DNA from: Escherichia coli
GTDB lineage: Bacteria; Pseudomonadota; Gammaproteobacteria; Enterobacterales; Enterobacteriaceae
NCBI RefSeq assembly: GCF_003334315.1
Contig: NZ_QOWR01000018.1
Strand: one strand, 5' to 3'
DNA length: 64,000 nucleotides
The notes beneath the pieces are model-generated. The model saw nothing but the letters and a program-made list of their open reading frames with translations, searched no databases and had not been told where the DNA came from. Shown here piece by piece: positions 38,697-39,136 of this stretch. The position numbers and the translations under genes are program-made. Each line of letters opens with the position of its first letter. The stretch's first letter is position 1.

Positions 38697-38909
38697 ATGT
38701 CTAACAAAATGACTGGTTTAGTGAAATGGTTTAACCCTGAAAAAGGTTTTGGTTTCATCACGCCGAAAGATGGTAGCAAAGATGTGTTTGTCCATTTCTC
38801 AGCTATTCAGAGCAACGATTTCAAAACGTTAACTGAGAATCAGGAAGTCGAATTTGGTATTGAGAACGGACCTAAAGGCCCCGCGGCTGTTCATGTTGTG
38901 GCACTTTGA
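38697..38909 (+). CDS. cspI: Cold-shock domain protein (CspI/CspB-like)
   Basis: [23 protein letters not shown]...[12 protein letters not shown] motifs; long AT-rich 5' UTR upstream. Confidence 0.85.
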
Positions 38910-39114
38910 GGTAGAAAATATTACAAACCATATTCACTTTAGATGCCCGTGTTGCCATGGTTCTCAGTATAGAACATCATCTTTTGATGTTTCTGACAGG
39001 AATCCTTTCGGGGCAAAATGTATCTTTTGTAAATCAATGATGATTACATTTGATAATATTTCACAATACTTAAATGTTAGCCGTCTGTCGTTAGATTTAA
39101 GAAAGTGAAAATGA

Positions 39115-39136
39115 AGGCTCCTTCGGGAGCTTTTTT
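39115..39136 (+). terminator. Rho-independent terminator
   Basis: GCTCC-TTCG-GGAGC followed by TTTTTT. Confidence 0.65.

Follow-up and report, generated by a model that had tools for sequence, protein, structure and literature searches.

An AUU-initiated copy of ynfQ as the probable second cistron of a prophage cspI-ynfQ unit in Escherichia coli

In a 64,000-nt stretch of Escherichia coli DNA (the whole of which we call the window), positions 38920-39108 on the plus strand are ynfQ, the prophage paralogue of ymcF. The gene was already known, since it is present in K-12 (b4724), in RefSeq and in Pfam. Taken as a whole, the locus is very probably best explained as a prophage copy of ynfQ that forms the AUU-started second cistron of a cspI-ynfQ unit and encodes a protein with a probably metal-binding core. 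What our analysis adds is modest: a comparative case for the ATT start and for purifying selection, the observation that ATT or ATC starts are strictly tied to direct coupling with an upstream csp gene, and the finding that the gene lacks an annotation in most of the phage records that contain it. The locus comprises the following features:

38539..38696, plus strand: 5' UTR of cspI, the 5' part of a cspA-type thermoregulator mRNA (Rfam RF01766)
38697..38909, plus strand: cspI, a 70-aa cold-shock protein and first cistron (ORF list; RefSeq cspI in an identical locus; K-12 b1552)
38908..38911, plus strand: Shine-Dalgarno (SD) sequence GAGG for ynfQ, 8 nt before the ATT start (from the sequence)
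38920..39108, plus strand: CDS of the ynfQ/ymcF family, 62 aa, ATT start and TGA stop (RefSeq WP_071528545.1, K-12 b4724, PF23641)
39111..39149, plus strand: truncated ynfR homologue, 12 aa (RefSeq pseudo CDS 'too short'; K-12 ynfR b4749)
39113..39136, plus strand: intrinsic terminator with a GC stem, C(UUCG)G tetraloop and T6 (fold; consensus scan)

The identity of the gene follows from its genomic counterparts. A megablast search with window positions 38650-39450 against 5426 complete E. coli genomes found the region in 2148 of them. In NZ_CP063341.1 the locus is 100% identical, and RefSeq annotates there a 189-nt CDS, "ymcF, cold shock small protein YmcF" (WP_071528545.1), which falls on 38920-39108 of the window; the gene order is rrrQ, rzpQ, cspI, the ymcF CDS, a "too short" pseudo-CDS, ynfN, gnsB and terminase. 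Qin, a cryptic prophage of K-12 MG1655, carries the same series after rrrQ and rzpQ, namely cspI (b1552), ynfQ (b4724, 62 aa), ynfR (b4749), ynfN and gnsB, with an ATT start for ynfQ, a GAGG SD overlapping the cspI stop, and the same terminator. K-12 YnfQ differs from the window protein, MTNHIHFRCPCCHGSQYRTSSFDVSDRNPFGAKCIFCKSMMITFDNISQYLNVSRLSLDLRK, at 3 of 62 residues (R27M, V53A, R61K); in addition, K-12 has an upstream in-frame TAG where the window frame is open back into cspI, and its ynfR is 21 aa long as against 12 aa in the window. The Pfam family PF23641 (YmcF-like) matches the window protein with E = 1.6e-33 and 115 bits, residues 1-61 aligning with positions 1-61 of the 62-position model. 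The original prediction, made from the sequence alone, had described an ORF ending at 39108 that encodes CPCCHG...CIFC with two Cys pairs, and the sequence is just as described: the cysteine motifs lie in FRCPCCHGSQYRTSSFDVSDRNPFGAKCIFCKSMM and HFRCPCCHGSQYRTSSFDVSDRNPFGAKCIFCKSMM, the pairs are C9/C12 and C34/C37, and the TGA at 39106-39108 closes a frame that is +1 relative to cspI and overlaps the csp 3' end.

Literature matches to the name 'ynfQ' can mean two different genes. In VanOrsdel et al. 2018 it denotes a different, 37-aa ORF at K-12 1632890-1633003 (PMC6001520, Table 1), apparently now called ynfT, and that report is therefore not evidence for the window gene. A further small ORF was seen in the Rz-like gene rzpQ (37836-38333), where a 98-aa ORF in the +1 frame (window 37987-38283, plus strand) with a lipoprotein-like LTSC motif is the counterpart of K-12 rzoQ (Rz1); RefSeq leaves it unannotated in its record for the identical strain.

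Homologues of the ynfQ product are widespread in Enterobacterales. A word-indexed search of 5.8 billion proteins found 133 homologue clusters; all of the listed ones carry PF23641, and they include Escherichia, Salmonella, Citrobacter, Klebsiella, Raoultella, Kosakonia, Enterobacter, Leclercia, Kluyvera, Yokenella, Siccibacter, Atlantibacter, Shimwellia and Dickeya. A csp gene lies 9-11 nt upstream of the ymcF homologue in Salmonella, Citrobacter, Kosakonia and Dickeya. Homologues differ hardly at all in the core FRCPCCHGSQYRTS...NPxGAKCIFCK: when 26 and 78 sequences were aligned, the invariant or nearly invariant positions were H6, F7, R8, C9, P10, C11, C12, H13, G14, S15, Q16, Y17, R18, S20, D23, N28, P29, G31, A32, K33, C34, I35, F36, C37, K38 and M41. 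The window protein holds every such column of the 78-sequence alignment, and residues 45-62 vary freely across homologues. Conservation of the Cys pattern and of the reading frame in homologous regions had been put forward with the prediction as a check, and both are kept across genera, at identities as low as 48%.

Another proposed check, a comparison of synonymous and nonsynonymous substitutions, also came out in favour of coding. In a codon alignment of eight copies from six genera, dS was saturated, dN in the core was 0.01-0.17, and core dN/dS was 0.03-0.11 where computable; variable core sites fell 13, 9 and 42 times on codon positions 1, 2 and 3, respectively. The annotated ynfQ frame is the only one of six that is open throughout all eight aligned copies. 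Judged by these substitution patterns, ynfQ is under strong purifying selection. When the ynfQ ORF alone was used as a blastn query, matches were found in 5400/5426 complete E. coli genomes, about 2130 of which have a prophage copy that is at least 95% identical; ymcF, the chromosomal paralogue next to cspG, matched at 72-77% over the coding core only. All blastn matches listed in E. coli genomes carry a CDS annotation.

Seven Escherichia lambdoid phages encode YnfQ at 95-98% identity (for example, NC_049950.1, 45050-45235), and five of the seven records have no feature annotated at the gene, the likely reason being that the ATT start defeats gene callers. A DNA scan with a degenerate version of CPCCHGSQ[YF]R, in which each GTDB species was represented by a single genome, yielded 95 loci, all of them enterobacterial except for one "Chryseobacterium" contig. 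This contig (CACSKA010000011.1, 'Chryseobacterium sp. 18061', 10939-10973) carries an enterobacterial csp-ymcF pair whose csp is 85% identical to CspI, and its Bacteroidota label probably reflects assembly contamination or mislabelling.

The start codon of ynfQ in the window is an in-frame ATT at 38920-38922, located 8 nt after the GAGG at 38908-38911; it had been overlooked in the first reading of the sequence because it is a rare ATT instead of an ATG. The K-12 ynfQ CDS also opens with ATT. As the prediction had stated, the window has a single in-frame ATG ahead of the Cys motif (38893-38895), which lies inside cspI and has no SD. Among 38 csp-coupled loci (36 scanned loci, the window and K-12), 15 have no in-frame ATG, GTG or TTG between the upstream stop and Cys9. 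Start codon usage differed sharply with the presence of csp, although the contrast is phylogenetically non-independent, with only about five independent switches to ATG counted. Where an intact csp ORF ends 9-15 nt upstream (n = 36 loci), the start was ATT in 30, ATC in three, an ATT one codon downstream in three (the Serratia/Symbiopectobacterium loci), and ATG in none. Where csp is absent, distant or decayed (n = 52 loci, each with 250 nt or more of sequence upstream), it was ATG in 40, an ATG within three codons in four, and ATT or ATC in eight.

The csp stop codon lies inside T[AG]AGG, with a spacer of 7-8 nt, in 31 of the 33 csp-coupled loci checked. ATG-started copies often stand behind a strong AGGAG SD (Enterobacter, Leclercia, Lelliottia), and others follow a recognisable csp remnant (Raoultella/Klebsiella). 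The ATG of stand-alone orthologues sits exactly at the position of the ATT, in agreement with the 62-position PF23641 model, and this fixes the N-terminus of YnfQ. On these comparisons, translation of ynfQ is assigned to the conserved ATT/ATC, 7-8 nt after a RAGG SD.

Two groups of loci depart from the usual arrangement. In Citrobacter sedlakii NBRC 105722 (motif at 2920-2954, minus strand), the csp is a pseudogene with a deletion at its 3' end, ~300 nt before the motif, and now shares a reading frame with ymcF, so that a potential Csp-YmcF fusion ORF arises; the ymcF start there is ATG, not ATT. Of the eight uncoupled ATT/ATC loci, several are of the Kluyvera type, with a full cspA-type RNA 570-600 nt upstream, so that the linkage with csp persists there without direct coupling. 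In these Pluralibacter/Kluyvera-type loci a conserved non-coding stretch separates the cspA-type RNA from the ymcF-like gene, which encodes 58-59 aa and starts with ATT or ATC in three of them (L028, L037, L090); in two related Kluyvera loci (L040, L087) the ymcF-like start is ATG.

Upstream of and across cspI, the Rfam cspA thermoregulator (RF01766) matches 38539-38955 at 109.8 bits (gathering threshold 78; E = 7e-29) with all model positions matched, spanning the cspI leader and CDS and extending 46 nt beyond the cspI stop into ynfQ. Only two other Rfam matches occurred at the locus, both sub-threshold and attributable to chance. The TGA that ends cspI (38907-38909) shares bases with the GAGG SD, and with only 10 nt and no terminator between the cspI stop and the ynfQ start, co-transcription of the two genes is obligatory. 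Downstream of ynfQ, the stem at 39116/7-39121 pairs with 39126-39131 around a UUCG loop and leads into the T6 at 39131-39136. This hairpin has a predicted dG of -14.8 kcal/mol (z = -2.6 versus shuffles) and was also found by a consensus scan, which placed it on the minus strand. The canonical terminator of the original prediction is hence present, but its GC stem begins 7-8 nt past the ynfQ stop rather than 6. A hairpin with a T-run occurs at most 90 nt past the stop in 24/33 csp-coupled homologous loci, as counted with a crude detector, and the stem sequences differ.

The ynfR ORF, which begins 2 nt past the ynfQ stop codon, incorporates the terminator hairpin; in the window it reads MKAPSGAFLLSV*, having been cut by a TAT-to-TAG change. 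YnfR-SPA in K-12 is strongly induced by cold shock (PMC6001520), and an ORF so placed and so induced implies that the terminator is read through in the cold. Further downstream, the RefSeq 76-aa model of ynfN (window 39181-39410, plus strand) is frameshifted in an A/T run after ATGAAAAAAATAATAG; a 99.9% identical strain with one additional base keeps the 76-aa ORF intact, and the K-12-style 51-aa YnfN (MREYPNGE..., 39255-39410) is intact in either case.

Published transcriptomes show these genes varying together: AZT induced cspI 6.5-, ynfQ 5.9- and ynfN 5.8-fold, and their SspA dependence was 38-, 42- and 51-fold, respectively (PMC11228462), while butanol lowered cspG, cspH, cspI, ymcF and ynfQ together (PMC11728337). 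From this co-variation with csp genes, the co-transcription with a thermoregulator and the database name, we infer that ynfQ is cold-shock-inducible, a reading of cold induction that rests on database names and one table entry in PMC11228462.

The protein itself was counted as uncharacterised in a 2024 survey of the y-ome (PMC11551758). An AF2 model built from the 78-sequence alignment has a mean pLDDT of 76, rising to 88-91 over residues 11-40, with short strands (17-19, 32-34) and, at lower confidence, a C-terminal helix (44-58). When this model was compared with the PDB using Foldseek, all matches had E of at least 0.6, the top ones being zinc ribbons (TFIIE-alpha and eukaryotic ribosomal proteins). 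None of the fold matches being significant, the term 'zinc ribbon' is based on the CxxC...CxxC pattern together with a model of medium confidence. With this basis, YnfQ probably has a Cys-rich core of ~40 residues that is zinc-ribbon-like and metal-binding (C9, C12, C34, C37), followed by a variable tail that is probably helical. Sequence searches with YnfQ gave no NCBIfam model above cutoff, only weak zinc-finger-type matches in PHROGs (DNA primase, E = 0.004; NrdC-like, 0.27), and no significant match in the PDB, where the best were the UvrA zinc module and Rieske box II (E >= 0.045). Among PADLOC defence models YnfQ had no match, and only CspI matched a generic CSD model. Our best guess is that YnfQ is a small metal-stabilised module that may bind nucleic acid, the ribosome or a partner protein in cold adaptation.

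Rieske [2Fe-2S] proteins were considered as possible relatives. The string CPCCHGSQY within residues 5-20 of YnfQ (window 38932-38979) resembles box II, CPCHGSQY, of cytochrome b6f PetC, at sub-threshold scores (NCBIfam E = 0.056; PDB E = 0.1-0.16). Membership was rejected, as the likeness is a box-II-like string of only 13-15 residues, with neither a box I (CxH) nor a Rieske-sized domain.

In the mechanism that we propose, the cspI promoter and the cspA-type thermosensing leader would drive a cspI-ynfQ transcript that ends at the hairpin-T6 terminator, making cspI and ynfQ a bicistronic cold-shock unit. Because of the overlap between the GAGG SD and the end of cspI, ribosomes completing cspI would arrive at the ynfQ start, where they may re-initiate or be captured. 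The weak AUU, disfavoured by IF3, would keep YnfQ far below the very abundant CspI, and may also make YnfQ synthesis depend on cspI translation and on low temperature. IF3 does discriminate against AUU, and this discrimination has been reported to be temperature-sensitive; AUU mRNAs were, however, translated more poorly, not better, at low temperature in vitro (PMC5499595), which makes a simple model of AUU as cold activation doubtful.

Two readings would change the nature of the gene itself. The original prediction had allowed that the stretch might be a structured 3' UTR of the cspI mRNA, non-coding and with an accidental ORF. That the frame has no canonical start with an SD, that the RF01766 match reaches 38955, 46 nt beyond the cspI stop, and that gene callers skip the ORF in five of seven Escherichia phage records would all suit this reading. 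It was rejected because the RNA of 38910-39110 folds no better than shuffled sequences (z = -1.47; 13 of 200 shuffles fold as well), and because of the evidence for coding: substitutions concentrated at third codon positions with a low core dN/dS, a frame and cysteines that persist down to 48% identity in other genera, a strong Pfam match, and stand-alone orthologues that have no csp upstream and use their own AGGAG SD and ATG. We assign next to no probability to it, and the small zinc-ribbon-like ORF that had been proposed between csp and the terminator stands as a coding gene (PF23641, annotated in RefSeq), although not with the start given to it. That start, the ATG at 38893 (or else TTG at 38854 or 38896), would yield a product of 71-84 aa overlapping the cspI 3' end. 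Its appeal is that the window offers no other canonical start codons in frame; yet a TAG directly follows the ATG in K-12 (ATG-TAG), 15/38 coupled loci lack any canonical in-frame start, no SD precedes the ATG, and both the 62-position PF23641 model and the ATG-started orthologues begin at the position of the ATT. A start within cspI is accordingly very improbable.

The other two readings accept an ATT-started ynfQ and concern what the start codon and the cysteines are for. We tentatively suggest that selection has kept AUU/AUC as the start of csp-coupled ymcF/ynfQ genes for regulation, and that it is no mere oddity of annotation; such a device would depend on csp-terminating ribosomes and on the stringency of IF3, which changes in the cold. 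The comparative data leave this as a possibility in which we place less than even belief. The ATT could instead have no regulatory meaning, being tolerated as long as coupling to the heavily translated csp supplies ribosomes and giving way to ATG, by drift or selection, once that supply is lost. Such neutrality, a possible account but one that we would not presume, is in keeping with the way in which the split between ATT and ATG tracks an adjacent intact csp, and with the eight uncoupled loci that retain ATT or ATC. What speaks against it is that not one of 36 coupled loci, from ten or more genera, starts with ATG, GTG or TTG; a single transversion would suffice to produce ATG, and its absence from coupled loci suggests selection against a strong start. 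As for the protein, the conserved Cys/His set might bind iron or an Fe-S cluster in a rubredoxin- or Rieske-like manner and serve as a redox- or iron-sensing module, in place of structural zinc. [quoted passage not shown] Nevertheless, the Rieske similarity covers 13-15 residues, is non-significant and lacks a counterpart of box I, C11 and H13 are replaced in some family members, and the identity of the metal cannot be read from sequence, so that we consider an iron site unlikely.

Returning to ynfQ as an AUU-started, csp-coupled cistron, its chromosomal paralogue in E. coli is ymcF, located downstream of cspG. YmcF likewise belongs to PF23641, has 62 aa, and starts with an ATT 10 nt after the csp stop, behind a TAAGG SD; ymcF too has a terminator, and the ymcE and gnsA genes downstream of it parallel ynfN and gnsB. 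The two proteins share 66% identity, with a diverged tail, and ymcF, unlike the prophage gene ynfQ, belongs to the core genome and overlaps ymcE at its 3' end. Another small protein of Qin, the CPxC zinc-knuckle protein YnfU/ECs_2282 (PF23499), has two CxxC pairs as YnfQ does, but is encoded at a different locus on the opposite strand. Kinship with it was tried and rejected (NCBIfam 17.6 bits against a cutoff of 37; hhalign probability 1.4%). Generic zinc ribbons, such as the zinc finger of TFIIE-alpha (PDB 1vd4), are also among its nearest known counterparts.

As regards initiation, the classical AUU-initiated E. coli genes are infC (encoding IF3) and pcnB, in which AUU is conserved as it is in ynfQ; one report gives these two as the only such genes (PMC5499595). 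The AUU of infC underlies the autoregulation of IF3, and infC is cold-inducible (PMC5499595). Unlike in infC and pcnB, the AUU of ynfQ is tied to an SD that overlaps a stop codon and to coupling with csp. Neither ymcF nor ynfQ is mentioned in the bioRxiv version of Weaver or in the main text of the tetracycline ribosome-profiling paper.

As a discovery the ynfQ locus matters little, the gene being already recorded in K-12, RefSeq and Pfam. It does offer a caution, in that ORF calling based on ATG, GTG and TTG misses a gene that is conserved and under purifying selection, owing to its ATT start. The link between ATT/ATC starts and csp coupling also provides a testable handle on how a low-abundance partner can be co-expressed with one of the cell's most strongly induced mRNAs. 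If the AUU/AUC start is indeed a selected device, it would set a fixed, low ratio of YnfQ to Csp or gate YnfQ to cold shock, and the csp-coupled genes of this family would make up a conserved group of AUU-initiated genes in Enterobacterales, in addition to infC and pcnB.
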